A DNA stretch of 64,000 bases from NCBI GenBank assembly GCA_040954595.2, contig CM082577.2:15321903-15385902 (forward strand), read 5' to 3'. The position numbers and the translations under genes were made by a program. Each line of letters begins with the position of its first letter. Position 1 is the stretch's first letter. The DNA is from Balanoglossus misakiensis (taxonomy: Eukaryota > Animalia > Hemichordata). Of this stretch, positions 2,305-64,000 are shown in pieces. Under the pieces are notes generated by a model, which worked only from the letters and a program-made list of their open reading frames with translations, had not been told where the DNA came from and ran no database searches.

Positions 2305-3201
2305 ATGGCATCGTCGGGTGGTTCTCCATACCCTAGTGAAGTTTATAAATCAACGAGTTCCCGAGAGTTAAGTATCAGAGAAAGTTTATTGTTCACTGAC
2401 AGCAGCTGTGTGGCCCTGGCTGAATCAAATCTGTACGTGAACACTGCTCGGCGTGTCCGATGTATTTGCTGCAAATTCAAACCTCGATACTGTTTTTCAC
2501 AAGCGCAAATAGGAGACTTGGTCTTCGAGCATTATGTGTTTAACCAATCCTGCTACAGCCATAATGAACACCGATATCCGAGAAGTGTACATGACAAAAT
2601 GGACGGGTTGGGTCGCCTGTTGGCATTGCGTGAACTAAGGTTTACATTCGTTGAACTGATACGCCATTTGCGACAACGCAGGCCAGACGATAGGTTCGAG
2701 GACCTTGTGTTCATGGCTATATACTGCATATCAGTAAACATTGTCGGTCCTGACGTTCATGTAAAAAGCATTTCTCTTTCTGCTATGAAGAACTATGCAC
2801 GTCGCCATAACTATTATGAGCCAATGCGCAGATCCTTGTCTAACTACTTACACAAGGCCTTCGTGCAAGTCGTTGGTGATTTTCCTTGGGCAAACGTCCA
2901 CCAACTATGTAGGGAAGCCTTTTCAAATCAAACGTTTATATTAGAATATTCCAGAACACGGGTTTCGTGCGACTTATGCCGTTTCAGCTTAGAACAGGTC
3001 CCATTACCACCGGATATCAAGGCCAAGTACATTTGTTGTAAAATATGTCTCGACAACCCCATCACGTTAATTGGTCAGTGCGGTCACCCAATGTGTGAGT
3101 CGTGTTATAATAAAATGGCGTCAGTAAGTCCTGGTGGACAGTGTCCGTTTATTTTCTGTCAACAATCATTAGATTCCTTTATTGCTATAAGATTCCCGTA
3201 A
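2305..3201 (+). CDS. IAP-like protein: N-terminal BIR-like CCHC domain plus C-terminal C3HC4 RING
   Basis: LAESNLY..VRCICC..EHYVFNQSC (BIR-like); CKICLDNP..CGHPMCESC..CPFIFC (RING). Confidence 0.7.
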   Translation: MASSGGSPYPSEVYKSTSSRELSIRESLLFTDSSCVALAESNLYVNTARRVRCICCKFKPRYCFSQAQIGDLVFEHYVFNQSCYSHNEHRYPRSVHDKMDGLGRLLALRELRFTFVELIRHLRQRRPDDRFEDLVFMAIYCISVNIVGPDVHVKSISLSAMKNYARRHNYYEPMRRSLSNYLHKAFVQVVGDFPWANVHQLCREAFSNQTFILEYSRTRVSCDLCRFSLEQVPLPPDIKAKYICCKICLDNPITLIGQCGHPMCESCYNKMASVSPGGQCPFIFCQQSLDSFIAIRFP

Positions 3202-3227
3202 AGTGTTATGGGTGTTGGCGGGACCTG

Positions 3228-3415
3228 AGCGAGTCGCACTGAATTTCAAGGTTGTAATTCAGAAGACGCGCTTTACTAGCAAACACGCATGCGCAACCAT
3301 TATTGACAATGACGCCGTGATTTTGCTGAGCCTATAAACAATCGTAGCTGATCGTCAATGCCATACCCTTATATAGCGATGTTACCAACTCGCAGCCCGT
3401 CATATTGCTATCGCC
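3228..3415. repeat. Further copy of the 124-bp repeat family plus the promoter shared by the two IAP-like genes
   Basis: agtcgcactgaatttcaaggttg..cgcatgcgcaac..gtcaatgccatacccttatatagcg matches 1751-2304. Confidence 0.9.
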
Positions 3416-4333
3416 ATGGCATCGTCGGGTGGTTCTCCATACCCTAGTGAAGTTTATAAATCAACGAGTTCCCGAGAGTTAAGTCTCAGAGAAAGTTTAT
3501 TGTTCACTGACAGCAGCTGTGTGGCCCTGGCTGAATCAAATCTGTACGTGGACACTGCTGGGCGTGTCCGATGTATTTGCTGCAAATTCAAACCTCGAGA
3601 CTGTTTTTCACAAGCGCGAATAGGAGCCTTGGTCTTCGAGCATTATGTGTTTAACCAATCCTGCTACAGCCGTAATGAACACCGATATCCGAGAAGTGTA
3701 CATGACAAAATGGAACATATTGGTTACATGTTGAAATTAGGGCGAGAGCGTGGACTAAGGTTTAAATTCATTAAACTGTTACGCCACTGCAGACAACTCA
3801 GGCCATCCTGTCCATTCCAGGAAATTGTGATTATGGCTATATACTGCATCTCAGTGCACATTGTCGGGCCTGCCGTTCGTGTAAATCACATTTCTCTTCC
3901 TGCTATGAAGAACTATGCACGTCGCCATATAGATGTTGGCAAAATGCACGGACCCTTGGTTGACTACTTACACAAGGCCTTCGTGCAAGTCGCTGGTTAT
4001 GATCCTTGGACAAACCCCCACGAACTATGTAGGGAAGCATTTAAAAATCAAAGGTTTTACTTTTGTGACGGAGGCTGTGCTCGGTGCGATGTATGCAATT
4101 TCATGTTAGAACATGTCGTACCACCAGCTGATATAGATGACAATTACATTTGTAAAATATGTTACCACAAACCCGTCACATTAGTTTCTAATTGCGGTCA
4201 CCCTATTTGTGATGGTTGTTATACTAGGGTGAGGTTTTCAGACATTCCAAATCTGTGTCCGTTCTGTCGACAACCATTGCACTCCTTTATAACTATAAAA
4301 TTTATGTGTTGTGTCGGTGTTTGCGGGACCTGA
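3416..4333 (+). CDS. IAP-like BIR-RING protein, tandem paralogue of 2305-3201
   Basis: First ~100 aa are nearly identical to the paralogue; RING CKICYHKP..CGHPICDGC..CPFC. Confidence 0.7.
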   Translation: MASSGGSPYPSEVYKSTSSRELSLRESLLFTDSSCVALAESNLYVDTAGRVRCICCKFKPRDCFSQARIGALVFEHYVFNQSCYSRNEHRYPRSVHDKMEHIGYMLKLGRERGLRFKFIKLLRHCRQLRPSCPFQEIVIMAIYCISVHIVGPAVRVNHISLPAMKNYARRHIDVGKMHGPLVDYLHKAFVQVAGYDPWTNPHELCREAFKNQRFYFCDGGCARCDVCNFMLEHVVPPADIDDNYICKICYHKPVTLVSNCGHPICDGCYTRVRFSDIPNLCPFCRQPLHSFITIKFMCCVGVCGT

Positions 4334-15797: not shown

Positions 15798-18700
15798 ATG
15801 CTGAATCCGTTCAGACGGGGTCAACCCAACATGAGCAGGCCTTTGATGACGTCTGATCTACTAAATTTTGACAATTTTTTTGCAGACGACGGGTCAAACC
15901 CGCCCTCTGGTCAGGGTCGATTCGGGGGAACATTCTCATCCAATCCAAACTATATCGGACATCGAAACCAGGGTCACACTGCCACAGACACCGATTGGGT
16001 TGCCCCGAAAGATGTCTTATTGAGTCAAAGGATATTATACGACTCGATCTCGCCTGATGAAGGCGTTGTTAAAGTGGGTGGTGATAGGTTGGCTTGGTTT
16101 TGTCCCATCGCTATTTTCAATGGAAGACCCAATTTTGCAATACAGGAAATCATCGCCCCGGCTTCAGTTGTAGATAAATGTACATCCGCGTCTACTCTGC
16201 CAACACTGGGCGTTGAAAAGCAGTCGAGACAGTATACCATGGATATGATGGGCGTTGCCATCAGTTTAGCTCCAGAGCTTATTCAAAGAGGGACTGTTAA
16301 CCAGATAAGGAATGCGTACAAACTCAAGGTCAAACAGGTGGTCGACAGTATCGCAATGACACTACAGGCAGTAGTATACAGTAATGTATTCGGTGGTCCC
16401 ACACTCGAATACATGGAGTTTCGCAGGATGGGCAACGAAAGAGATGTTTCTAGAGCTAACCTATTTTATGGTACATATCAGAAAAGAATCGACAATTTTC
16501 TACTATGGAACCTGGGGCGAACAAACAAGAAAGCTGTGTTAATTGACTTGGATAACTGTTTGAATTACAGTTCGAACAACGACGGTGATGCCGACACAAT
16601 AATATGTCACCCTGTCGTCGCAGGTGTCTTGAGGGAAACTGTCGCGCCTAATCTAGGCACGCAAGAAACTCGAGAAACCTATTTTGTGAATACGTCTGAT
16701 AATCACATTGTGTATAATCACCATCTTCAACCAGACCCAAACCTCTCCCACCAAGTTCATGCTCCAAATTTAAGAACAATAGTTAATGCAAAAGTTAAGT
16801 ACATTATTCCCTGTCCGGATGTACGAATAAACAATGTCAAGTCGAATCTCAGTGAACTCGAGGCCAACTTCAAATCGTTTAACGTTATAGGATATTGTCC
16901 ATTACTGCAACAAATGGGTAGTCTACTGGACTTCAAACAAACCACATCTGTGGATTGGAATTCCATATACGTTACCGACTTTGAGAAACGATACGATTCG
17001 AGGGTTACCTTGGACGAGGTGATGGAACAGGGTGGTTATTTTGTACCAGAAACATACAACGCGAGTTCTTATAACAATCTATTGAGAAGTGCAGACTTTA
17101 TTGAATTGACGACCATAACACCAGCCGAGTATTATCGATCATGCACAATGCCTTTCACTGGAAAGGAGAAATCCTGCTTGTTAGATCCTAGTCGAAAAGT
17201 GTATTATGACCCGGACAGACAAACATTTCTACCCGCGTTCACTTATGGACACAGCAACGTGAGCACCTGTCCCGTCGACAGGGGTGACATTGTCGCCGGT
17301 ATGACGTTCATGTCCAGGACAATGGTTGGCCTCGGAGAGCATTGCGACGAGGAATTGTTATGCAACTATGTAAGAGACTGTCTGTCGCTGGAATGGTCTC
17401 AGGAGGATTTCGACACCCTTATGCTGTTTGATCGCACACCGTTTCACGAGGCAATGGGCGATGTGGCAGAAGTTGGCAATACCAGTGATGGGAATGGAAG
17501 TGGAGAAGGTTCAGGTAGCCAGGGGACATTGGCCCAAAGGGTTATCAGGGACGTCACTTCTCATAGTGGCGCCACACATTTTACCAATTACGATCAATTG
17601 CTAATCGTCCGTCATATTTGTCAGCAACGCAGATGCATCGATCGAGAAAGAGAGGAAGGTGGTCGTGCAGGTGCTACCGCTATGAACGCATTAGACTGCG
17701 CAATTGTCAACATTACTATGATTATAGAATGGGTAGACTTACTCTATGACAAATATAAAACAGTAACCAAATCCAGGCCAGATACTACACACAGTTGGTT
17801 GTTCACGCCATTGGGTCATGAGACTCTACAAAAAGTATTTCACGATGACCGCCTAGATGAAGCGGATGAGAGAGATTACACGCATATGTTACGCAACAAG
17901 GCTGCTCTGTACCACAATGTATTTCTGAGAGCATTTTCGCCGGTTGTATATGTTGCGGGAAATTCTTCTTTAGACGAAGCTATAGAGGCCGGCATCGTGA
18001 ACGTTGTGGGGCTGGGTGACATTACACTGAACGAGGAGGTTTATCATTACAATTGTAACTTTAGTACATATTCAGCCAGGCGGACATTCAATACTATAGC
18101 TGATTCGTCATTCATACGCCCCAAGCAAAGATTTGTTATCTCCGATTTGAGTCCATTGCACTCATACAACAATGACTCTCCTGTCGATGCGGAACACTTT
18201 CTGAACCATAACTATTCCTACAGGTTGTCATGGATCTGCAGTTCGTCATACAGTCTCATGATCAAGTGTTTTACCATGATTTTCATTAGCATGTTACAAA
18301 ACCCAACCACTACTAGAGCGTTAGCAAAAGAAGGGATATATTTAAACACGGCGTTTCTTTTGTTCAGAAATGTGGTACAGCGGACATGTAGCATCGCCAT
18401 GGCGCGATCTGGTAGAGAGAACAGGTTCTTGTTTTGTGGCAATAGCACTACAAATAGTTACCATAGTAATGCCACCAGTTATGTGACGAATTGTCGTTTC
18501 GAGACAAATATGGTGGACTTCGACCCGATCAATAACACCAGGGTACAGTTGCACGTGGGAGGTCTGGGTTATAACAGGGGGATGGGTTCAAAAATTAGGG
18601 ACCCGTTCACGGAGGGGACGTCCGATGGTAGGGGCGACTTTGTTGTTGTACCTATGTGTCCGATCGTAGATGTTGGGCTCTGGAATCACATTCAACCTAT

Positions 18701-19265
18701 GAACGGGCGAGTTACGTTCGAAGATGGTAATTCAAACAAAAAGGCCACGAGAATAGACACTGTCCAAGGTATTTACACCAATAATCCGTGGTCAACGGCT
18801 GGACTGTCAGAGGCTCAGATTATACATGGTAACATGCGACATCCCTTATGGGTTCACAATAGTAACAAGCACGGGACGTTCAAGTGTTTCTTACAGGCCA
18901 AGACACCGTCACCACAATACCAAGTTGGTATTGATGAATTTTATAGGCCCATAGATTCCAATGGTCTACAGAGAGAATCAAACATAGCTGTACAGGGTAG
19001 GCAGTACCACAACAACATTGACTGTCCATACGCTTTCAAGACTCTTAACAGAGGGTTTTATGGAATGGACGAAAATAGTAGCAATCGCTTCCAAGACGCC
19101 CTCAACGTCTCCACCGTTCGTGATGACGAAGGTTTACATCTGATGGATCCAATCACGATTCAACCGTCTGTCAAGAGAACGGACAAGTACTACGCAGAGA
19201 CTGGAATCCGTAAGAAATTCAAGCCAGACGACGCGTCGCGTCAACACAGACTAATACCTATTTAG
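15798..19265 (+). CDS. Major capsid protein, HK97-fold floor with large insertion (herpes/mirus type)
   Basis: 1155 aa, clustered with protease and triplex. N-terminal E-loop/spine-helix-like segment (QYTMDMMGVAISL..YKLKVKQVVDSIAMTLQAVVY) and DTIICHP. Confidence 0.7.
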   Translation: MLNPFRRGQPNMSRPLMTSDLLNFDNFFADDGSNPPSGQGRFGGTFSSNPNYIGHRNQGHTATDTDWVAPKDVLLSQRILYDSISPDEGVVKVGGDRLAWFCPIAIFNGRPNFAIQEIIAPASVVDKCTSASTLPTLGVEKQSRQYTMDMMGVAISLAPELIQRGTVNQIRNAYKLKVKQVVDSIAMTLQAVVYSNVFGGPTLEYMEFRRMGNERDVSRANLFYGTYQKRIDNFLLWNLGRTNKKAVLIDLDNCLNYSSNNDGDADTIICHPVVAGVLRETVAPNLGTQETRETYFVNTSDNHIVYNHHLQPDPNLSHQVHAPNLRTIVNAKVKYIIPCPDVRINNVKSNLSELEANFKSFNVIGYCPLLQQMGSLLDFKQTTSVDWNSIYVTDFEKRYDSRVTLDEVMEQGGYFVPETYNASSYNNLLRSADFIELTTITPAEYYRSCTMPFTGKEKSCLLDPSRKVYYDPDRQTFLPAFTYGHSNVSTCPVDRGDIVAGMTFMSRTMVGLGEHCDEELLCNYVRDCLSLEWSQEDFDTLMLFDRTPFHEAMGDVAEVGNTSDGNGSGEGSGSQGTLAQRVIRDVTSHSGATHFTNYDQLLIVRHICQQRRCIDREREEGGRAGATAMNALDCAIVNITMIIEWVDLLYDKYKTVTKSRPDTTHSWLFTPLGHETLQKVFHDDRLDEADERDYTHMLRNKAALYHNVFLRAFSPVVYVAGNSSLDEAIEAGIVNVVGLGDITLNEEVYHYNCNFSTYSARRTFNTIADSSFIRPKQRFVISDLSPLHSYNNDSPVDAEHFLNHNYSYRLSWICSSSYSLMIKCFTMIFISMLQNPTTTRALAKEGIYLNTAFLLFRNVVQRTCSIAMARSGRENRFLFCGNSTTNSYHSNATSYVTNCRFETNMVDFDPINNTRVQLHVGGLGYNRGMGSKIRDPFTEGTSDGRGDFVVVPMCPIVDVGLWNHIQPMNGRVTFEDGNSNKKATRIDTVQGIYTNNPWSTAGLSEAQIIHGNMRHPLWVHNSNKHGTFKCFLQAKTPSPQYQVGIDEFYRPIDSNGLQRESNIAVQGRQYHNNIDCPYAFKTLNRGFYGMDENSSNRFQDALNVSTVRDDEGLHLMDPITIQPSVKRTDKYYAETGIRKKFKPDDASRQHRLIPI

Positions 19266-19555
19266 ATCGAAGGGATAACTGTCAAATCAGTTTCGTTTAA
19301 TCCCACCCGCATAGATAGATAAAAGTTTTGTTAAGGCCAGAGAGAAAAAAAAATCTTGTTCATCGGATTTTTTGGACGATGGTCCAGGAGCGGCGAGCGA
19401 ATATTTTTTTTTTTTTTTTTTTTTAGGCTCGTGCTCTTTCATTTTGTTACCTGTATGTGTAGGTCTACCTGTGCTGTACTATATGTAATGTATGACTTAT
19501 ACGGCCGAAATAAAAAGTTGAACCACCAGAAGTGACAACCACAATTTTTTCCGAG

Positions 19556-19617
19556 CATGGTGTATTATTTGCTGACCTTATATTGGCAAGCTTCACAAAT
19601 GGTGACCCCGACGTGAT
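19556..19617 (+). mobile_element. LTR-end relic (..CTTCACA) followed by a perfect tRNA-Trp primer-binding site
   Basis: TGGTGACCCCGACGTGAT at 19600-19617 is the complement of the eukaryotic tRNA-Trp 3' end plus CCA, 2 nt after a CA terminus. Confidence 0.8.
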
Positions 19618-20412
19618 GAATTCTCAAGGCATGAGTGTATTGTATTTACAATCGTGACGTTACTGGTTACCGACTCACCCTCTCCAGACAAGTGACGCAC
19701 ACGATCACGGCCAGTATGTATGGCAGGAAATCACACGCATTAATTCCCGAATAAAATTTGGGATAACGATTATTTAAAACGGAATGCTTGTTTTGAGAAA
19801 GCTGCCCGTCTCGCGCATAAAAGTTCAACATATTTGAAATATCTTAAATAAAAGTGAATAAGCTTTCAATATATATATAATGACAACAAAATGGTTTAAC
19901 ACGTAACAAAAATATAAATTCTGTACAAAAATTCATGAATTCTTGTCAATGAATCTCAGATATAATAAATAATGTCTATACAGCGTGATTTTGATTGTCT
20001 TTTCCATGTAACGTAAATACCACAACGTAGTTCTTCTCCAGGCGATGGGAAAATATAGTCTCTTGCCATGGACGAGCGAAATTTAATCTATCAGGGAAAT
20101 ATATCTGCTCACAAATGCGCGCCATATTGGGTGGCAAAGCGCGTCGTCGTCATCAAAAGTGGAAATCAACACTAGAACGTGAACATCGCTTTTGATGTCC
20201 GTTTCTCGAGTCACAGTTTCAAGTCTGAATACTCCAACACGACATATTAAAGCTCTGTCTCTTCCACCTCCAGTTTTGATTGTATAAACATCGTCGCGTC
20301 CGATGGCGCGATCATTTGGTGCAGCGTTCGGTCGGGTGCGAAATTTTCCCTTCAAGACGGTGTGATTTTTTTCCTCATACTAATTCTGTGTAACTACGAG
20401 TCTTGGCTGTCA

Positions 20413-20898
20413 TTATGAATACGATTTCAGTTCGGCAAAAACTTCTGAAAAATACGTACTCTCCTTGTTTATCCGTAACATGTTGGCACTACAGTCATTT
20501 ATAATTTTCAGGCTTCTGTCCCCGAATCTGTCTCTGTCGTCTTCAACTAGGAACGGTTTTAGCGGATAACTGATCTCGTTGCCCACGTAACTATAGGATA
20601 AGTACAGACATGTGAGCACGACGGCTTGTAGCTCAGACTCGGAGGTGATTTTGTCGTCGACAAAGTCCCGACATAACATGTACACGAAGACAAGGTTTGC
20701 CGGGGTGATGAAGGCAATGTCCTGCCACCCTTGCAAGAGCAGGGACCTGTCCACTGATCGCAGCCACATTATGGCATCGTTGCCTTCGAAGTCCCGCAAG
20801 CAGGAGCATCGCCGACTGAGGAAATTTCCCAGACACTTCAGCAGTTCTCCGGTGGACGCTTGGATGGTTTTCTTGGTGTTCGGCGTTTTCACCGCCAT
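20413..20898 (-). CDS. CDK5R1: CDK5 activator p35 homologue reduced to the activation domain (p25-like)
   Basis: [58 protein letters not shown]. Intronless; in-frame stop just upstream of accATGg. Confidence 0.95.
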
Positions 20899-20937
20899 GG
20901 TGTATTATTTGCTGACCCTATATTGGCAAGCTTCACA
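20896..20937 (+). repeat. Second copy of the 42-bp LTR-like repeat (1 mismatch), overlapping the p35 start codon
   Basis: catggtgtattatttgctgacc(t/c)tatattggcaagcttcaca at 19556 and 20896. Confidence 0.9.
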
Positions 20938-21317
20938 CGATGAACAATTTATTTTTCTTCCTGGCCTAATTGTCTCTGTACTGTCCGTGTTGCCAGCCAA
21001 TCCACTCATTTATTCCGCTGCTTTGATATAATTACATGCCTATGCAAATAGGGAAAGATATACAAATCTACATGCCTTTTTTTTATACACCACATAATAC
21101 GTAAGTGCATGTATTCCAACTGTAATACATTGGATAGACCGTGTGCGTGCGTGTCACTATCCTGCGTGTAAAATTGGCGAGTATAATTTTTAGAGACAAC
21201 TCGGCTTTTGTGGCTCATAATTCTAATTATATCAAAGTACAACGCCAACAGTCCTATACATCTGGCGTTGACATAACCTATTAGCGTGTGCAGAGAACAG
21301 TATTGTTTAGTTGAACC

Positions 21318-21683
21318 ATGAGAATTTTACTCGCTACTTTTATGGGGGTTCTCTTTATATCATTTATTATCGGTCTTACAAACTTCGTCAAATCTTTACC
21401 GTCACATCATAATCCAAAGTCCCCGATAGCGCCACCCTTTTATTTACGGTGGTGTAAAGATTCCCTCTATACTACGCTGTCAGAGACGACCGAATGGGTA
21501 CCCGATCAATTAACGAATCTGATGTACAACTCCACCTACACCCCAATGCCATTGAGGAAAGTGAGCAAAGAAACAGTAGGTTGGATGGCACAGAGGCTTT
21601 TAAACATCAAGTCTGCTATTACGCCCAACGCTCCAAAAGCCTTAGTAGGATACACGATAGATATTTCTATACAGGGTCCTTAG
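21318..21683 (+). CDS. Small secreted or membrane protein (signal-peptide-like N-terminus)
   Basis: MRILLATFMGVLFISFIIGL hydrophobic leader. Confidence 0.5.
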   Translation: MRILLATFMGVLFISFIIGLTNFVKSLPSHHNPKSPIAPPFYLRWCKDSLYTTLSETTEWVPDQLTNLMYNSTYTPMPLRKVSKETVGWMAQRLLNIKSAITPNAPKALVGYTIDISIQGP

Positions 21684-22288: not shown

Positions 22289-22867
22289 ATGACAGAACAA
22301 ACGTCAATGTCGTCTCAATTAGACCCCGAAATGTGTATTTGTCGCATATGCCAAGAAGGTGAATCGTGTGCTGAAGGCGGCATGCTTTTGATTGCACCTT
22401 GTTTATGCAAAGGTAGTCTGAAGTTTGTCCACCGTAGGTGCATCCAAACCTGGATAAGAAGCGCTCGTATCAACCGATGTGAAATTTGTAATGCACGCTT
22501 CAAAATCATGGTTGAGACTAGACCAATATCAGAATGGACATTGCCGAAGATGACCAGAACGATATGGATAAATATTGCACTTGTGTTGTCGTGTACTGTG
22601 TGTATATTAGGCATATCATTACACATGCACCTTTTGGTGGAATCCCTATTTCTAAAGATGGATGCACTGAATACATTTTTCGTGGTGGCTTGCGTGTTGC
22701 TGGCACTTATGGCGCTGACTGCATTTGTCCTCCTAGAGACTTTTAGGTGCGTGGACGTGTATGTGTGGTTAAGAGAGAACAACAGAGAGATAGGTGTTAA
22801 GGACTATTGCCCATCTTCTCAACAAATACATGGTGGTGATGAAGACATACGCACGAATACGGTGTAG
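22289..22867 (+). CDS. MARCH/K3/K5-type RING-CH E3 ligase with two TM helices
   Basis: CRIC..LIAPCLCKGSLKFVHRRCIQTWI..CEIC followed by two hydrophobic segments. Confidence 0.9.
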   Translation: MTEQTSMSSQLDPEMCICRICQEGESCAEGGMLLIAPCLCKGSLKFVHRRCIQTWIRSARINRCEICNARFKIMVETRPISEWTLPKMTRTIWINIALVLSCTVCILGISLHMHLLVESLFLKMDALNTFFVVACVLLALMALTAFVLLETFRCVDVYVWLRENNREIGVKDYCPSSQQIHGGDEDIRTNTV

Positions 22868-24734: not shown

Positions 24735-27700
24735 ATGCCCACTTGTCTGTGTCCATCTTCGTATTTATATTGCAATTTTATCACGGGTCAGAGCCTTATA
24801 ACGTTAAACCTGGTCATGAATGTAGGAAGGCGGCGTGTTTACCTGTTAAAACTAGAAGTCAAAGGGAGAGGAGTCAACGCATCCGACCTCTGTACCATCT
24901 TCGGCAAACTTCCCAATGGGCGTAGTATCGCGTTGGACATACTCGACCCAGTATATAGGATTTATTTGAATCCCATCAACGAGGTTAGGGACGAGGAAGA
25001 AGTGTGCGCCCTCATTCATCAGTATACCAGCACGTTTTCCAATAACTTCAGCGTTGGTAAAACGTCAAAGGTAATCGGCAATGGTTACGCGGGGGATTCT
25101 CGACTGCCATTTTGGTACGTCGAGTCGTCGGAAAATGCGGTTGTTAAACAGGTGCAAAAAAATCTACCACGCTCCATTTTCAATTTTTTTATGGACGGCT
25201 GTGGAAAGGCCTATTTGGACGTAGCGGCCAATATGAACATCGGGGGTGTTGGTTGGCACTGGATTAAGTCGTCAAGATACGTAACGGGATGCAAATGCCA
25301 TTCGTGGTATGGCAAAGAACATGATCATGCCACTGTGAGTGATACCCACTCCATTGAGCCCCAACGAGAAGGCGAAAGTAGTCCACCACCACCCATTAAC
25401 ATTCTTCAACTGAAAGTTCATTGCTATCCAGACGGTGTAATCGCATTTATTACCTGTTCGTTGTTACGATGGGCAAAAGATTTGACTTGTCTGTTTAATA
25501 ATACATTCCGTAATTGTACCGTTGTGAAGTTTAGAACCACGATGTATGGTGGTGATATCTCAAATGTAGTAAATTGCAGGGATGAAGGTAATGTGTTACG
25601 CGCATTCACCAAAATCATCACTACCTGTGACTATGACTTTTTATGTGGATATTTTTTGGAAAAGGAACAGTTAAGAGTGTTAAAGGAGAGAAGTTGTCTT
25701 CACGGGCTCAACTTGATAAACCCTTTATTAATCAGGGATATTCGCCACACGCCTTTCATCAACAGGTGGGATAATGACCCACGCGGTATTGGCTTGATCG
25801 ACATATGTACTGACAAACACGCGGATGGTCCGGACGCCTACAAATACATCAAAGACACTGTATTTAACAAAGGCTTCCTGAACACATACTTATCAACTTG
25901 CGAAGCGGCTACTATATTCTGTAGCCGACTAACTCACAAGAAGTCAAATGTAGATATTATACAGGTACCATACATGGATTTTTTTGAGTCAGCTATGACT
26001 CGTAAGGCTAAACAACTTGGGTACGTCTTTGCATGCAGGGAAATCGGAGGAAGCAATGCGACGACGAGTCATTCTGAATATGAGATTGAAGCAGATCGAG
26101 GTCAAGGTTGTCAAGGCGGTTTGTTTCTCACGCCGGTTCAAGGGTTACACGTGGGCAATGCAGAATTGAGAGATTTTAAAAGCATGTACGGTTCCATAAT
26201 AGTTGCATTTAACATCGACATCACCACTAGTTTGCAAGAATCACGCGCGGGTTTATTAAATGATGTAATTGAGATACCAGGTGGCTACAACTTTGTTAGC
26301 CCAAATGTTCGGCAGGGGTTACTACCGTCTATAGTTTCAAATCTTGTCGCGCAACGGGAACACTTCCAGAAAATTGCCCAGAGCAACAACGAAAACGGGA
26401 GTTGGTACGAAATGCAACAAATGGCACGGAAACAATTGATTGTGGGAGCTTACGGAGTCAATTTACGTCAGAGTATATTCACAAGCCCGTGTGTGGCTAA
26501 GGCCATTACATCCACTGGTAGATTCCTCTTTGAACGGATGAGAGTAACAGCCGCGTCATTCACCCACCCACATTTATTGACGACACCCAGTGTCCTATTT
26601 GGAAATGCAGATTCTCTGATGACCAGTTTCCTGCCAGCACGTGAATTGTCTAACGTCGAATGGACCGAAGTTTTCATGGATATTGGACAGTGTTTCCACG
26701 ACGACATTCGTAAAGTAGTTCAAACCATGGGCGCGAATATAGATGCGCGTTTATTGCGGTTTGAGTCGAAAGGGCATGCAAAAATAGTAATGTGTACGAG
26801 TCGCAAACAACAGTATGTGATGTGCATTAGGTCAACTTCCAAAAAAGGATGTTGTTTAGTTGTCAAAGGGTTTGTATCGAACTCTACAAACTGCCATCCC
26901 TTGGTGAGAAACGTGGAAAGATGTATGCTGTCACTCCTGTTTGAAGGTCATGTATTGCTTAGGTCTGTAGAATCTGGGCAACTGTCAACACTTCACCCAA
27001 GTGAATTGTCCACACGCTCGCAACTGATATATGAAGCGTACGTAGCATCATCTGGGGTGTGGGTGAAGGTTGGAGATGCTATAAACCAAGATACTGGTGT
27101 TAAGAACTCCTTTCGTTTGCGAGATAATTTAGGCAGAGAATTGTGCGAACGCCTTTTTGACGAGGACGGCATTCCGATACTCACCACTGACAGACTCAGA
27201 GAAATAAGGTCTGAAGTGGAGACGGTTGTGTTGTACACGTTAAACAGAGTCATAATGTTGCAAGAAGACACGCACCTGTTGATAAAACATTTGCCACCGA
27301 ATGCTAACCCTGGTGCAAGGTCGACGTTGGAAAAACAATACATGCAATTTCACGGGAGATTGCCTTGTGATATATTATATGTGAATACCAAAGAAGATGG
27401 ACCAATGCACCCTCTTTTGGCTGTCTTCCAACAGAAAACACTAGAGACAGATGACACAATTGCATCGATAAAAAAGACCTTTATTGAGGGGGGTGACGAA
27501 GGTGGTCCGTATTCCATTATGAATGTTATGAGGCCCAACGTCAAGACATTACACGGAGTATTGTGCATGGAAACAGAATCAACTGTGCAAAATCAGTTAA
27601 GAGTACAAAGACAGTTTCGGAAACGATTCGATTCTGTCCTCGCTATGTCCTCTAAGAAAGTCGAACACCCCGTGTGCAATAATGAAGAGGAATATGTGAT

Positions 27701-28019
27701 GACAAAATTGTTGAATTTTACCAACTGTCCGGATTGTAAAGTTATCACTGTAGATCGAGCTAATCGCGACTACAACTACACCGACATGTTCGGAACTGAT
27801 GCGATAATCCGGAAGCATAATTTGGTTTTATTCAATGTATGCAAACAAAGTTCGCGTGTGTATTTCATATCCAATTGTAAGGATGTCCAGTGTGTAGGCG
27901 TATACAAATTTGCCACCTTGGTGAATCAATTGAAAATACTAACTGCACTTAAAAACAAGGAAGCAATGGTAAACAAAGTGTCAACTGTTTTGACTGAACG
28001 TCTCACGAAATCACAATGA
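24735..28019 (+). CDS. Family B DNA polymerase, Pol-delta-like layout, with degenerate exonuclease and polymerase motifs (likely start 24816)
   Basis: GGLFLTP..DFKSMYGSIIVAFNI; QMARKQLIVGAYG; FGNADS; VVKG; C-terminal Cys cluster. Confidence 0.85.
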   Translation: MPTCLCPSSYLYCNFITGQSLITLNLVMNVGRRRVYLLKLEVKGRGVNASDLCTIFGKLPNGRSIALDILDPVYRIYLNPINEVRDEEEVCALIHQYTSTFSNNFSVGKTSKVIGNGYAGDSRLPFWYVESSENAVVKQVQKNLPRSIFNFFMDGCGKAYLDVAANMNIGGVGWHWIKSSRYVTGCKCHSWYGKEHDHATVSDTHSIEPQREGESSPPPPINILQLKVHCYPDGVIAFITCSLLRWAKDLTCLFNNTFRNCTVVKFRTTMYGGDISNVVNCRDEGNVLRAFTKIITTCDYDFLCGYFLEKEQLRVLKERSCLHGLNLINPLLIRDIRHTPFINRWDNDPRGIGLIDICTDKHADGPDAYKYIKDTVFNKGFLNTYLSTCEAATIFCSRLTHKKSNVDIIQVPYMDFFESAMTRKAKQLGYVFACREIGGSNATTSHSEYEIEADRGQGCQGGLFLTPVQGLHVGNAELRDFKSMYGSIIVAFNIDITTSLQESRAGLLNDVIEIPGGYNFVSPNVRQGLLPSIVSNLVAQREHFQKIAQSNNENGSWYEMQQMARKQLIVGAYGVNLRQSIFTSPCVAKAITSTGRFLFERMRVTAASFTHPHLLTTPSVLFGNADSLMTSFLPARELSNVEWTEVFMDIGQCFHDDIRKVVQTMGANIDARLLRFESKGHAKIVMCTSRKQQYVMCIRSTSKKGCCLVVKGFVSNSTNCHPLVRNVERCMLSLLFEGHVLLRSVESGQLSTLHPSELSTRSQLIYEAYVASSGVWVKVGDAINQDTGVKNSFRLRDNLGRELCERLFDEDGIPILTTDRLREIRSEVETVVLYTLNRVIMLQEDTHLLIKHLPPNANPGARSTLEKQYMQFHGRLPCDILYVNTKEDGPMHPLLAVFQQKTLETDDTIASIKKTFIEGGDEGGPYSIMNVMRPNVKTLHGVLCMETESTVQNQLRVQRQFRKRFDSVLAMSSKKVEHPVCNNEEEYVMTKLLNFTNCPDCKVITVDRANRDYNYTDMFGTDAIIRKHNLVLFNVCKQSSRVYFISNCKDVQCVGVYKFATLVNQLKILTALKNKEAMVNKVSTVLTERLTKSQ

Positions 28020-40983: not shown

Positions 40984-41216
40984 GTAATCGGTTCACAAAA
41001 AGACATATGATAAACTGGCCGTTATCTTCAATTATTTATACGTTCATGAAAACAGAATCACAACAAACATAATTCACATGTGTTGCGTATGTATAGTAAT
41101 GTCGTAAATGAAGTGACCGTTTGATATTTTCTTCAGGGACGCGGTTGAGAACCAATGTACATGGTTTGTGCCCAGACGCAATTGGTTAGTACACCACCCT
41201 TTTATTCAATCACTTA

Positions 41217-42022
41217 GGCTGCATTCACAAACACCTCTGGAGGGGGGGGGCGGGAGAATTCAATTTTTTTTACCGCTAATTTTCACATGCCCCCCTTCCG
41301 AACTGCCAATATTTTCAAACCCCCCCCCCCTTCCGAACTGCCAAAGTTTTGAAATCCCCCCATTGTCTTTCACAGAGCAAAACACATCACCTATCTATCT
41401 TGTAAAAAGAAAAACAGCGCTCCCATGAAAAGAATTTGAAACTGATGTTTCCCCTCATCAGTGGGTATTAAAACTGAACATTGTTTTTATTTGTTAAGTA
41501 CATATATTTGTATTCTGTGTTGGGAGAATTTGTAAACCGAGAATTGAAGGGGGTGGGTTTGGGAGGGGGTGTCCCCCTCCCACGTAAGAAAATTTTCTAA
41601 AATACAGAGCTCAAAGCTGCATTTTAAGGAACCCGGCAAAAGCAAATTAACTCAACTACCGGTTTGTTGGGGAGGACAAATTTAACCGTCGCCGAGCAAA
41701 GTTATCATGGGGTGGGGGCAAGTCCCCTGACCTGGGTCACTAGATAAACCAGTCAATGATTGAAAGGTGTTGATGAATTGAGGGGGTGGGTGTGGCAGGA
41801 GGTTTCCCCCTCCCACATTAGAAAATTTTGTAAAATAAAGGGCGCGAAACTGCATTTTTGTGGACTCAAAATAAATATTTAGTCGTCAAAGTTTTCAAGT
41901 CCCCCCCCCCTTTCAGTCCCTAAATTATTTCAAACCCCCCCCCTCACATACCCTCAATTTTTTCAAACCCCCCCCCCCTTAATTCTCCTGCCCCCCCTCC
42001 AGAGGTGTTTGTGAATGCAGTC
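41217..42022. mobile_element. PIF/Harbinger-type MITE, ~806 bp
   Basis: ~45-bp terminal inverted repeats g(g/a)ctgcattcacaaacacctctggaggggg..gagaatt; TTA duplicated at 41214-16 and 42023-25; no coding capacity; G/C homopolymer runs. Confidence 0.85.
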
Positions 42023-42222
42023 TTAGAAGGGGTTCATTACATCAATTTGTGACAAAGAAGAGAAGATACACAGTTCACATCGTGCGTTTCATGATGTTTA
42101 TTACTTTCCGTACTCGGACCTTGTAGAACCAGCAACCGGATACGACACCACCGTCGGCTTGTGGGAGTTCTACCAATTATAATATATAAGTATAAGAACA
42201 ACAGATAAACGCCTTATCGATA

Positions 42223-46842: not shown

Positions 46843-48462
46843 ATGGCCGAACTATTCAGTGTTTCAATAAGGAGGCCGGTCAGTATCATTTTGTAATACC
46901 TTTTCCGTATTTTTACATCTTCGGGTGGCATAACCCCCACCTTTTATTTCTTTACTTAGGTGAGTATGTGGCATTTGAGACACGTAAATAAGGACGCGAA
47001 ATGTAAAGCTATGGGAATAGCCAAGAAATTAGAGACAGCGCCCACTAGCGGCCGAAAAACAATGTCGAAAGGTGAGTATCGCGCGTTCGTCAGATATGCG
47101 TTATATTTAATGGTTTTGCGTTTCTGTGCGGTCGTTGATGACCGAGCCAATGATCCGTGTAAAATCAGCACCCATACTTCGAGATATCGGTGGTTTCTTG
47201 AACCATTGTATTTTATTCCGGTTTCAGGCACGAACATCGTTCTACACAATTCAGTACAGTGTTCACAGCCCTTACCCGAAACCTCTCACGTATTGGACGC
47301 CTTGACTAGAGTACATTGTGTGATTGAAGGCTGTTACAACCCAAGTGCCAGAATAGTCAGCACCGATAATGTACACGGTCTAATGCACGCTGTGCAGATG
47401 GCATACAGAAAAAGCTATCCGTTGGTTTTGAGTCCAGATATTGTGTGGTTGTGTATTTCACAAGGATTTATGCAACACATGTGCTCCGACGACCGTTTGT
47501 ACCGCCTACTAATCAAAACTCACGAGAATACAAGCGTTGAATCTACCATGTCCCACCTCGACGACAAGTCAGAATTTGGGGAATGGAAAACTGCGTTAAT
47601 CGACTTGTCAAACCATGTTCGCGAAACCCTAGGAGAGTGTAATTACGGAATGATGACACCAGACTTTACCACAACCAGCCTACAAGATAAAATTGTAGGA
47701 GATTTGACAGTGTCTGCCCAAGTGGACCCGAAGTTTTCGTATTTGCTGCAACCAGGTGAAGTAAAAAATCAGCGTCCTTTGACTTCGAATGGAATTCCCT
47801 CTATTTTTTTAGAAGGCTGCCTAGATGATTGGACGGCGATCCGGCGTAATACTGTCAAATTGGGGTGTTATGATCTGAACTGGTGGACCGATGGTGTGGT
47901 AAAAATTCTTGACAAATTTATAAAGGCGAAAGAAGGAGTGATCGACAGAGAATTCTGGTCAGGCATATATGAGGCAAGTATTGTAAAGGAGATTGCATGA
48001 ATTATTGTATTTACCCCTCTTAGTTGTTTCGAGTATCAATTATTTTGAACCATGTATATGTATTCCGCGGTTACAATCATAACACGTTTGTGTTTTGGGG
48101 GTTTTCTGTGGGGTGGGGGGTGGGGGTGGAATACCATCCCTTATACATCGTCTCTTTCGCTCTCTCATTATCAGATGGTTGAGTACCCATGTGGCCCATG
48201 TATCACCGGGTGGATCGTCGACCTGTTTCCGTATTTCATGTACAAACAGGACCGAGAATCAACAATACTGGCGGACTCTTTTCCATCTGGTCTGTCGATA
48301 AACCCTTTCAACGTGGGACAATCCGCAGAAGTCTCGAAACTGGCGCTTGTAAGCGGGTTCATGGGAGTATCTCAAGACGCTGATACACTAGCTCTCAGAC
48401 CGGAATTGGGATGGGTCGTTCTCAACCACAACAAGAACAACGGCTCACCGACCAAGATATAA
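46843..48462 (+). CDS. DUF4419-like protein, 4 exons (46843-46878, 46960-47071, 47228-47973, 48175-48462)
   Basis: GLMHAVQMAY..PLVLSPDIVWLCISQGF; PDFTTT; GIPSIFLEG..DW; FWSGIY|..GPCITGWI..FP; SGFMG..LRPELGW. Splice sites are phase-compatible; the last intron is GC-AG. Confidence 0.75.
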
Positions 48463-59316: not shown

Positions 59317-59334
59317 ATATATATATATATATAT
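59317..59334. repeat. (AT)n microsatellite at the virus/array junction
   Basis: atatatatatatatatat. Confidence 0.95.
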
Positions 59335-62300
59335 CTGTAATGGAAATGGAGAAAGTACCTTATATTTTCTGTAAAATAGACATTTAATTGGCAAGCCGTC
59401 CTGCATCAATTATGAATTGTGTACATGCACTAAAGCGCCCTCACTGCTGGGTGTGTTGTATGGTCTTTAACCCTGTTTCAAATTAGAGTACTTTCTGCAA
59501 TTTCAAGACAGATCTTACGTGCCATTGGAGAGCTCCATTGACTGGTCATTCATACTGTTTTCATTCATTCATTGCGGCATCAATATATTTTATCTATTCT
59601 AGCCAAAGAGCTTGGCACCTGTTGAAATGAACTCATCTGCTGTGGGCCAGTTTATTGGTGGCAGTTGAGCTGAGCAGAGCACCTTCCTTCCCGGCACGCC
59701 ACCAAGTAAAGTTCCACGCCGCCCACCACAGATGCCAGCATTCATTCATGCGAGTGAGTGTAATTGCAAATTTGCCTATTCTAGATCTGTAATGGAAATG
59801 GAGAAAGTACCTTATATTTTCTGTAAAATAGACATTTAATTGGCAAGCCGTCCTGCATCAATTATGAATTGTGTACATGCACTAAAGCGCCCTCACTGCT
59901 GGGTGTGTTGTATGGTCTTTAACCCTGTTTCAAATTAGAGTACTTTCTGCAATTTCAAGACAGATCTTACGTGCCATTGGAGAGCTCCATTGACTGGTCA
60001 TTCATACTGTTTTCATTCATTCATTGCGGCATCAATATATTTTATCTATTCTAGCCAAAGAGCTTGGCACCTGTTGAAATGAACTCATCTGCTGTGGGCC
60101 AGTTTATTGGTGGCAGTTGAGCTGAGAAGAGCACCTTCCTTCCCGGCACGCCACCAAGTAAAGTTCCACGCCGCCCACCACAGATGCCAGCATTCATTCA
60201 TGCGAGTGAGTGTAATTGCAAATTTGCCTATTCTAGATCTGTAATGGAAATGGAGAAAGTACCTTATATTTTCTGTAAAATAGACATTTAATTGGCAAGC
60301 CGTCCTGCATCAATTATGAATTGTGTACATGCACTAAAGCGCCCTCACTGCTGGGTGTGTTGTATGGTCTTTAACCCTGTTTCAAATTAGAGTACTTTCT
60401 GCAATTTCAAGACAGATCTTACGTGCCATTGGAGAGCTCCATTGACTGGTCATTCATACTGTTTTCATTCATTCATTGCGGCATCAATATATTTTATCTA
60501 TTCTAGCCAAAGAGCTTGGCACCTGTTGAAATGAACTCATCTGCTGTGGGCCAGTTTATTGGTGGCAGTTGAGCTGAGAAGAGCACCTTCCTTCCCGGCA
60601 CGCCACCAAGTAAAGTTCCACGCCGCCCACCACAGATGCCAGCATTCATTCATGCGAGTGAGTGTAATTGCAAATTTGCCTATTCTAGATCTGTAATGGA
60701 AATGGAGAAAGTACCTTATATTTTCTGTAAAATAGACATTTAATTGGCAAGCCGTCCTGCATCAATTATGAATTGTGTACATGCACTAAAGCGCCCTCAC
60801 TGCTGGGTGTGTTGTATGGTCTTTAACCCTGTTTCAAATTAGAGTACTTTCTGCAATTTCAAGACAGATCTTACGTGCCATTGGAGAGCTCCATTGACTG
60901 GTCATTCATACTGTTTTCATTCATTCATTGCGGCATCAATATATTTTATCTATTCTAGCCAAAGAGCTTGGCACCTGTTGAAATGAACTCATCTGCTGTG
61001 GGCCAGTTTATTGGTGGCAGTTGAGCTGAGCAGAGCACCTTCCTTCCCGGCACGCCACCAAGTAAAGTTCCACGCCGCCCACCACAGATGCCAGCATTCA
61101 TTCATGCGAGTGAGTGTAATTGCAAATTTGCCTATTCTAGATCTGTAATGGAAATGGAGAAAGTACCTTATATTTTCTGTAAAATAGACATTTAATTGGC
61201 AAGCCGTCCTGCATCAATTATGAATTGTGTACATGCACTAAAGCGCCCTCACTGCTGGGTGTGTTGTATGGTCTTTAACCCTGTTTCAAATTAGAGTACT
61301 TTCTGCAATTTCAAGACAGATCTTACGTGCCATTGGAGAGCTCCATTGACTGGTCATTCATACTGTTTTCATTCATTCATTGCGGCATCAATATATTTTA
61401 TCTATTCTAGCCAAAGAGCTTGGCACCTGTTGAAATGAACTCATCTGCTGTGGGCCAGTTTATTGGTGGCAGTTGAGCTGAGAAGAGCACCTTCCTTCCC
61501 GGCACGCCACCAAGTAAAGTTCCACGCCGCCCACCACAGATGCCAGCATTCATTCATGCGAGTGAGTGTAATTGCAAATTTGCCTATTCTAGATCTGTAA
61601 TGGAAATGGAGAAAGTACCTTATATTTTCTGTAAAATAGACATTTAATTGGCAAGCCGTCCTGCATCAATTATGAATTGTGTACATGCACTAAAGCGCCC
61701 TCACTGCTGGGTGTGTTGTATGGTCTTTAACCCTGTTTCAAATTAGAGTACTTTCTGCAATTTCAAGACAGATCTTACGTGCCATTGGAGAGCTCCATTG
61801 ACTGGTCATTCATACTGTTTTCATTCATTCATTGCGGCATCAATATATTTTATCTATTCTAGCCAAAGAGCTTGGCACCTGTTGAAATGAACTCATCTGC
61901 TGTGGGCCAGTTTATTGGTGGCAGTTGAGCTGAGCAGAGCACCTTCCTTCCCGGCACGCCACCAAGTAAAGTTCCACGCCGCCCACCACAGATGCCAGCA
62001 TTCATTCATGCGAGTGAGTGTAATTGCAAATTTGCCTATTCTAGATCTGTAATGGAAATGGAGAAAGTACCTTATATTTTCTGTAAAATAGACATTTAAT
62101 TGGCAAGCCGTCCTGCATCAATTATGAATTGTGTACATGCACTAAAGCGCCCTCACTGCTGGGTGTGTTGTATGGTCTTTAACCCTGTTTCAAATTAGAG
62201 TACTTTCTGCAATTTCAAGACAGATCTTACGTGCCATTGGAGAGCTCCATTGACTGGTCATTCATACTGTTTTCATTCATTCATTGCGGCATCAATATAT

Positions 62301-64000
62301 TTTATCTATTCTAGCCAAAGAGCTTGGCACCTGTTGAAATGAACTCATCTGCTGTGGGCCAGTTTATTGGTGGCAGTTGAGCTGAGAAGAGCACCTTCCT
62401 TCCCGGCACGCCACCAAGTAAAGTTCCACGCCGCCCACCACAGATGCCAGCATTCATTCATGCGAGTGAGTGTAATTGCAAATTTGCCTATTCTAGATCT
62501 GTAATGGAAATGGAGAAAGTACCTTATATTTTCTGTAAAATAGACATTTAATTGGCAAGCCGTCCTGCATCAATTATGAATTGTGTACATGCACTAAAGC
62601 GCCCTCACTGCTGGGTGTGTTGTATGGTCTTTAACCCTGTTTCAAATTAGAGTACTTTCTGCAATTTCAAGACAGATCTTACGTGCCATTGGAGAGCTCC
62701 ATTGACTGGTCATTCATACTGTTTTCATTCATTCATTGCGGCATCAATATATTTTATCTATTCTAGCCAAAGAGCTTGGCACCTGTTGAAATGAACTCAT
62801 CTGCTGTGGGCCAGTTTATTGGTGGCAGTTGAGCTGAGCAGAGCACCTTCCTTCCCGGCACGCCACCAAGTAAAGTTCCACGCCGCCCACCACAGATGCC
62901 AGCATTCATTCATGCGAGTGAGTGTAATTGCAAATTTGCCTATTCTAGATCTGTAATGGAAATGGAGAAAGTACCTTATATTTTCTGTAAAATAGACATT
63001 TAATTGGCAAGCCGTCCTGCATCAATTATGAATTGTGTACATGCACTAAAGCGCCCTCACTGCTGGGTGTGTTGTATGGTCTTTAACCCTGTTTCAAATT
63101 AGAGTACTTTCTGCAATTTCAAGACAGATCTTACGTGCCATTGGAGAGCTCCATTGACTGGTCATTCATACTGTTTTCATTCATTCATTGCGGCATCAAT
63201 ATATTTTATCTATTCTAGCCAAAGAGCTTGGCACCTGTTGAAATGAACTCATCTGCTGTGGGCCAGTTTATTGGTGGCAGTTGAGCTGAGAAGAGCACCT
63301 TCCTTCCCGGCACGCCACCAAGTAAAGTTCCACGCCGCCCACCACAGATGCCAGCATTCATTCATGCGAGTGAGTGTAATTGCAAATTTGCCTATTCTAG
63401 ATCTGTAATGGAAATGGAGAAAGTACCTTATATTTTCTGTAAAATAGACATTTAATTGGCAAGCCGTCCTGCATCAATTATGAATTGTGTACATGCACTA
63501 AAGCGCCCTCACTGCTGGGTGTGTTGTATGGTCTTTAACCCTGTTTCAAATTAGAGTACTTTCTGCAATTTCAAGACAGATCTTACGTGCCATTGGAGAG
63601 CTCCATTGACTGGTCATTCATACTGTTTTCATTCATTCATTGCGGCATCAATATATTTTATCTATTCTAGCCAAAGAGCTTGGCACCTGTTGAAATGAAC
63701 TCATCTGCTGTGGGCCAGTTTATTGGTGGCAGTTGAGCTGAGCAGAGCACCTTCCTTCCCGGCACGCCACCAAGTAAAGTTCCACGCCGCCCACCACAGA
63801 TGCCAGCATTCATTCATGCGAGTGAGTGTAATTGCAAATTTGCCTATTCTAGATCTGTAATGGAAATGGAGAAAGTACCTTATATTTTCTGTAAAATAGA
63901 CATTTAATTGGCAAGCCGTCCTGCATCAATTATGAATTGTGTACATGCACTAAAGCGCCCTCACTGCTGGGTGTGTTGTATGGTCTTTAACCCTGTTTCA
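59333..64000 (+). repeat. 452-bp near-perfect tandem array (>10 copies, runs off the window); Helitron-like unit ends
   Basis: Unit ATCTGTAATGG..GCAAATTTGCCTATTCTAG starts at 59333, 59785, 60237 and onward; only one C/A variant site was noticed. Confidence 0.97.

Follow-up and report, generated by a model that had tools for sequence, protein, structure and literature searches.

The ORF at 20413-20898 of the 64,000-nt stretch of Balanoglossus misakiensis contig CM082577.2 analysed here (referred to as the window) is probably a recent copy of a host p35 gene, captured by a non-autonomous Harbinger-type transposon and now drifting as a passenger in the genome of a large DNA virus. The features on which this reading is built are collected in Table 1. 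Contigs were compared from three runs (X1, X2 and X3) of one sample, possibly the window's own source.

Table 1. Features in and around the inverted-repeat element, with positions in the window
Feature	Position	Strand	Basis or remark
Adjacent viral gene, putative major capsid protein (1,155 aa)	15798..19265	+	51% identical to L001 ORF
Left target-site duplication, TAA	19332..19334	.	sequence
Left terminal inverted repeat (TIR), 31 nt, starts GGCCAG	19335..19365	+	alignment to right end; summed contig depth in thousands
Whole non-autonomous TIR element, 1,632 bp	19335..20966	.	without transposase ORF
T-run within element body	19404..19424	+	about 190 nt from captured gene
42-bp repeat copy 1, element sequence	19556..19597	.	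41/42 identical to copy 2, E 4e-14
12-nt filler between repeat copy 1 and captured piece	19598..19609	.	gap from repeat end to start of X3 record 19 match
Captured host-like segment: p35 core coding, stop, about 800 nt downstream (3' UTR-like)	19610..20895	-	match to X3 record 19
p35/p39-type CDK5-activator core ORF	20413..20898	-	161 aa, ATG to TAA
42-bp repeat copy 2, ends in the ORF's ATG (20896-20898)	20896..20937	-	host-like match reaches only to 20895
Right terminal inverted repeat, 29 nt	20938..20966	-	summed depth at 20951: 4,930 (X1), 40,381 (X2)
Right target-site duplication, TAA	20967..20969	.	sequence

The product of the ORF is recognized over residues 8-160 by the Pfam profile PF03261 (E 8.4e-87, 292 bits against a cut-off of 25), and the human p25/p35 chains 1ung_D and 7vdp_C align to it without a gap (E 3e-62). 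In this alignment residue n of the ORF corresponds to about residue n+132 of p35 and the whole ORF to about p35 133-293. An earlier sequence-only reading had described a p35 core without its N-terminal region, and this description holds: the QAST motif is preceded by just 12 residues, against a median of 143 in the 53 homologues that start with MGT, and the ORF has no p10 region with a Gly2 myristoylation site. The same reading had named an upstream exon restoring p10 as a reason to abandon its proposal. Such an exon is ruled out by an in-frame stop two codons above the ATG and by a tblastn search of the window with 120 homologues, which found no separate p10-like piece near the ORF (best match elsewhere, E 0.022). 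The ATG has a good start context, the native stop codon is kept and an AATAAA lies downstream, while the nearest TATA-like words are found at least 189 nt upstream of the ORF, outside the element. An Rfam search of 19200-21600 gave no match. The GC3 of the ORF is 0.62 compared with 0.447 +/- 0.034 in 31 other ORFs (z 5.1), as expected of an unameliorated import.

The form of p35 that lacks p10 in the cell, p25, is a calpain product covering about p35 99-307. The ORF does not reach this span and is instead truncated at the DNA level, so that of the earlier term 'p25-like' the loss of p10 stands but the extent does not, the ORF being the shorter of the two. According to the available text of PMC8609871, p25 is without the myristoylation signal and has a lifetime 5-10 times longer, and Cdk5 is inhibited by two p35 fragments, CIP (154-279) and p5 (ending at 277).

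The ORF is enclosed by an element that has, by its sequence features, the marks of a non-autonomous PIF/Harbinger-type transposon, a setting that the sequence-only reading had overlooked. Harbinger elements typically have a 3-bp duplication and 25-50-bp inverted repeats (PMC2572040, available text), and enter baculovirus genomes at TAA (PMC4735498, available text). Here TAA is followed by GGCCAG on the left and CTGGCC (20961-20966) is followed by TAA on the right, both inverted repeats fall within the typical length range, and dispersed copies occur in the host. The assignment of the TIRs relies on a gapped alignment test, in which the pair scores 41 and none of 200,000 random window pairs reaches that value (null maximum 31), and not on an exact-match test, which is weak (14 nt, reached by 2 of 60 shuffles), or on blastn, by which the pair was not detected. 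Among 50 TWA-flanked candidates in the window the pair ranks first, with 34 against 14 for the next.

Copies of the element on other flanks are seen in all three runs, where its ends appear as deep, variant contigs with loose ends (among the 17 of 49 loose ends listed). Two X3 contigs carry TAA and the same terminal hexamer on other flanks, and one right-end contig continues into a flank that is not TWA. The first copy of the 42-bp repeat is covered by deep, diverged host-repeat contigs. The T-run in the element body was considered as a poly(A) tail of the gene and is ruled out by its position; it belongs to the element, and the loose end of another element copy enters the same T-run context. 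A search of IMG/VR with the TIR pattern returned three matches that had neither a partner end nor any other similarity, and these were put down to chance.

Within the element, the captured segment is matched by a 2,725-nt X3 contig (record 19) at about 98% identity, with 25 differing letters and 44 letters in gaps. This contig continues for about 700 nt on each side in sequence unlike the window, and it has the family residue at those conserved codons at which the window deviates. Since it offers room for the missing N-terminus as well as the family residues, the second locus is likely to be the host's own full p35 gene. That the viral gene was taken from a host, as had been claimed, is borne out by the occurrence in this sample of a nearly identical locus that has different flanks. 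As in Pack-TIRs, non-TE sequence thus lies inside a TIR element with a parental copy elsewhere (X3 record 19 and X1 record 6), and one breakpoint has a short filler, of 12 nt; no joint of an empty parent element was found among the records listed. A phylogeny had been proposed as a way to name the donor, and was run by a quick method on 60 rows, comprising the window and 59 homologues (named ones plus top matches); it gave no supported clade for the window.

The host-like match ends at 20895, and the ATG that follows is therefore element sequence, placed exactly at the junction and in frame with the captured core. As this ATG lies within the 42-bp element repeat that flanks the captured piece, the truncation is a capture breakpoint and not an evolved p25 design. 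The p25-like look of the product is a consequence of where that breakpoint fell.

The surroundings of the element agree with the earlier description of the gene as virus-borne. The window is gene-dense with single-exon-looking ORFs, 33 of which were scanned with Pfam, and includes a family B polymerase (E 3.5e-20), a ribonucleotide reductase small chain, a dNK, a UL92-like gene and several RING proteins; an NCBIfam search of the window ORFs named the polymerase only. The element begins 69 nt from the stop codon of the putative capsid gene. The putative capsid ORF has two unnamed relatives, HK97-type look-alikes found by features (0.91, a weak sign at low recognition) and a predicted model with a pLDDT of 28. 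The gene content is that of a large DNA virus, putatively a herpes-like or mirusvirus-like one (for background on mirusviruses see the available text of PMC10827195).

A metagenome contig, L001, has nine ORFs in common with the window (33-54% identity), six of which keep their order, yet both the CDK5-activator gene and the element are absent from its 15.9 kb, which are rearranged behind the capsid gene so that another gene comes next. No relative of the ORF was found in IMG/VR by single query or by alignment, a blank that is weak because the putative capsid and polymerase have no IMG/VR relatives either. Among the 120 homologues of the ORF listed there are no viral names, and most are unnamed. 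Absence from related viruses had been set down beforehand as counting against a viral CDK5 activator, and the result from L001 and IMG/VR leans that way.

Several other features of the viral sequence may be recorded. The six-gene block of L001 (1-15899) ends, as in the window, in the putative capsid gene, and the two appear to represent an undescribed group. The sole AATAAA within about 330 nt downstream of the capsid stop on the same strand lies inside the element (19265-19509). The family B polymerase (24735-28019) is very divergent, with the motif FGNADS (FGHADS in its sole close relative, P0261) where YGDTDS is usual. The product of 22289-22867 combines a RING-variant (MARCH-type) domain (E 4.6e-13) with hydrophobic stretches behind it, and presumably resembles membrane ubiquitin ligases of the K3/K5 kind. 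Two paralogous RING-finger ORFs at 2305-4333, with 124-bp repeats upstream, represent a recent tandem duplication, and at 46966-48462 a DUF4419 domain is divided between two neighbouring ORFs (profile 1-195 and 249-303), either as a broken gene or around an intron. A non-coding 36-bp inverted repeat encloses C-rich direct repeats of 33-35 bp at 41213-42026, possibly an origin or packaging signal. From 59333 to 64000 a tandem array with a 452-bp unit (10.3 copies, 99% matches) runs off the window and is perhaps a terminal repeat. At 19464, 20662, 22387, 23278 and 24002 all sample contigs differ from the window letter, owing to assembly errors or to a viral genotype that differs slightly.

The substitutions in the captured segment were compared with the X3 contig. 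Of the 25 differences 23 are listed. The non-coding part (803 nt) has 14 of these and the ORF 9, namely 4 synonymous and 5 non-synonymous changes (codons 79, 105, 122, 126 and 131). Codon 79 is doubtful, as the X1 contig has the other letter there, and without it the non-synonymous changes number 4. In these small counts (9 coding differences), where host allelic variation and post-capture change are not separable, pN/pS is 0.36, or 0.29 without codon 79, and neutrality is not rejected (binomial p 0.12 and 0.08). An omega of 0.1 is rejected (p 0.001 and 0.007), an omega of 0.2 is borderline (0.017 and 0.062) and an omega of 1 is not rejected. Host allelic variation within the silent differences may mean that the true post-capture ratio is higher. 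The non-synonymous rate, 1.1-1.3%, is not distinguishable from the 1.7% seen in the captured non-coding sequence (Fisher p 0.80, or 0.46 without codon 79). Among the indels listed none lies in the ORF and several lie in the captured non-coding part. Neutral evolution had likewise been named in advance as telling against the proposed activator, and these values lean towards it.

Of 47 columns that are conserved in at least 90% of 258 homologues, the ORF keeps 46. The sole departure is codon 126, which is Gly in the window and in one of the 258 homologues, and Trp in 254 of them. By alignment to the p25/p35 chains this codon lies within the p5/CIP stretch of p35, in the helix of the p5 peptide region; the literature searched yielded no report of what p35 Trp258 does. 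Any protein made from the ORF is likely to be a weak or dead activator, judging by this residue. The sequence-only reading had suspected decay in the motif FGDRSL. The suspicion is upheld for the Gly, which is peculiar to the window copy, but not for the Ser (codon 129), which is found in 32 of 257 homologues and is common to the host-like allele, since an X1 contig covering 124 nt of that allele has 6 differences, none of them there. Decay at Ser129 is thereby ruled out.

The proposed origin of the ORF may be set out as follows. During repair of a break in a host MITE, synthesis would have switched its template to the p35 locus, in the manner by which breaks are filled in animal Pack-TIRs (PMC8277862, available text). 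The switch would have copied 1.29 kb of p35 and re-copied 42 bp of the element. Host transposase would have moved the packed element into the TAA site behind the putative capsid gene, where its intergenic position may have been of low cost to the virus; the packing could have taken place either in the host or after insertion into the virus. The viral copy would then have gathered amino-acid changes at about the non-coding rate, including that of the nearly invariant Trp. Against such passenger drift stand the in-frame ATG at the junction, the complete core with its own stop, a pN/pS below 1, the lack of indels in the ORF, the lack of an empty site among those listed and an allele near viral depth (see below). 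Host insertions in baculovirus are rapidly purged, according to the available text of PMC4735498. The neat junction is, however, a biased sign of function, because the same neatness made the ORF visible to the reader.

Three other accounts concern how the gene came to stand where it does. Repeats occur at every junction, and a virus and a host p35 locus might have been joined through repeat copies during assembly. Among the records listed, bridging by at least 31 letters on both sides occurs at the left outer junction alone (X2 record 9, with 70 letters outside and 40 inside), the right outer junction being covered by 29 letters inside and the inner left junction by 22 letters; the ATG junction is bridged by none of them, the listed records stopping at 20895 as expected of a fork. 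Such a chimera is nevertheless quite unlikely, because a matched TAA duplication stands with the TIR pair at both outer ends and a distinct allele occurs at virus-like depth in two runs. At 20452-20575 X1 has two alleles, with summed depths of 142 (window type) and 60 (host-like) between viral flanks of 135-152, and in the two runs the window-type allele against the viral flanks gives 142-164 against 135-152 and 411-475 against 300-499, bearing in mind that contig depth is no copy number. No joint of an empty TAA site was found among the records listed. The presence of viral and host-like sequence in the same sample, with X1 viral contigs exceeding the host-like allele in depth by a factor of only 2-3, would also suit a virus integrated in the host genome, into which the element jumped without ever being carried by virions. 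The viral ORFs are long and open, though, only one such element occurs in 59 kb, and the viral-to-host-like depth ratio is unequal in X1 and X2 (a weak sign, contig depth again being no copy number), so that a provirus is improbable. The lack of viral-gene coverage in X3 is given no weight. Equally small is the probability of an RNA route, in which a LINE would have inserted a 5'-truncated p35 retrocopy into the MITE and the 42-bp repeat would be its target-site duplication. This would account for the 5' truncation, the coding and 3' UTR sequence in mRNA sense and the direct repeat on both sides, but the 3' junction (19610) has no poly(A), the host-like contig continues for about 700 nt there, and a 42-bp repeat is far from the 15.9-bp average duplication of LINE-1 captures in poxvirus (PMC9578709, available text). 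An RNA route would leave the passenger reading standing, as the capture step alone differs.

The remaining alternatives concern function. It is conceivable, if rather unlikely, that a virus is here making a new gene, the transposon having removed p10 and given a start codon, with the result fixed as a first viral CDK5 regulator, whether activator or inhibitor. As an activator it would be a young functional p25 mimic, kept since CDK5 activation that is long-lived and free of the membrane anchor would favour replication in cells that do not divide. The complete in-frame core with native stop and AATAAA, the conserved columns, the pN/pS, the near-viral depth without a listed empty site and the longer life of p25 without its myristoylation signal (PMC8609871, available text) would all fit such a mimic; the Gly in the p5-region helix, the rejection of strong constraint, the absence of the gene from every other viral contig searched and the distance to the nearest TATA-like words speak against it, and the idea is regarded as doubtful. 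The earlier proposal of a deregulated activator analogous to v-cyclins finds no support for similar reasons, the gene being about 98% identical to a host-like locus, its ATG having come from a host transposon, no other viral contig having the gene and a nearly invariant residue being changed. By analogy with CIP and p5, the product might instead bind CDK5 without activating it and so dampen the host kinase. These inhibitory fragments come from the same region (PMC8609871, available text) and the altered residue falls within their stretch by alignment, but the ORF extends beyond CIP at both ends, the change is a single radical one with no other sign of selection, and loss of the Trp may equally unfold the domain; a dominant-negative binder is accordingly held to be most improbable. 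The passenger reading, with a captured and drifting p35 copy, is thus preferred.

Host-gene acquisition by large DNA viruses is mostly read from old, diverged copies, and LINE-1 retroposition is the route that has been experimentally shown. In the present case the vehicle, the duplication, the breakpoints, the likely donor locus and the first mutations are all still visible, and the evidence points to a cut-and-paste DNA transposon that both truncated the gene and supplied its start codon. This is likely to be an instance of host genes entering viruses by way of transposons, a meaning that stands even with a dead protein; if the product does work, CDK5 would have a viral regulator. The main texts searched, mostly non-subscription, describe neither a viral CDK5 activator or regulator nor a case in which a packed DNA transposon has brought an open host ORF into a virus. 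The ingredients are each known, in the available texts on transposons in viruses (PMC4735498; PMC6004678), on Pack-TIRs and on Harbinger transduplication.

At the level of the protein, the ORF resembles p25 and CIP in consisting of the core cyclin-box activator region without the myristoylated N-terminus. It differs from p25 in being a DNA truncation, with an N-terminus about 30 residues shorter (by the p25 boundary as generally given), an end at about p35 293 and an altered, nearly invariant Trp. The v-cyclins of gammaherpesviruses are likewise host CDK partners in large DNA viruses. They are expressed genes of old origin, diverged from the host and conserved among related viruses, whereas the ORF shares about 98% identity with a host-like locus and is found in one genome.

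At the level of the element, the closest likeness is to the Pack-TIRs of animals (Tan et al. 2021, PMC8277862, available text) and the Pack-MULEs of plants, in which non-TE sequence also lies between element halves, with a parental copy elsewhere, a short filler at a breakpoint and the target-site duplication outside. Unlike these, the present element is in a virus genome and holds an open ORF started by an element ATG, and in the main text of the Pack-TIR paper (PMC8277862) the word 'Harbinger' is absent and 'virus' occurs once. Turmoil-1 of C. elegans is similarly a Harbinger-superfamily element with captured coding fragments, which were judged not to be under purifying selection (PMC2572040, available text). 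Turmoil-1 is autonomous, resides in a cell genome and holds its fragments in long TIRs, in contrast to the one internal 1.29-kb piece of a non-autonomous element in a virus described here. Host transposons in baculovirus (Gilbert et al. 2016, PMC4735498) and viral MITEs (PMC6004678) provide, in their available texts, further cases of Harbinger elements at TAA in large DNA viruses. The baculovirus insertions are rare and purged, and no host gene is reported in the available text, whereas the present insertion is apparently in most viral copies and carries a host gene. Finally, the capture of genes by LINE-1 in poxviruses (PMC9578709, available text) is also a case of a host mobile element carrying a host gene to a virus. 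It proceeds by an RNA route that leaves poly(A) and duplications of about 16 bp, marks that are absent from the element described here.
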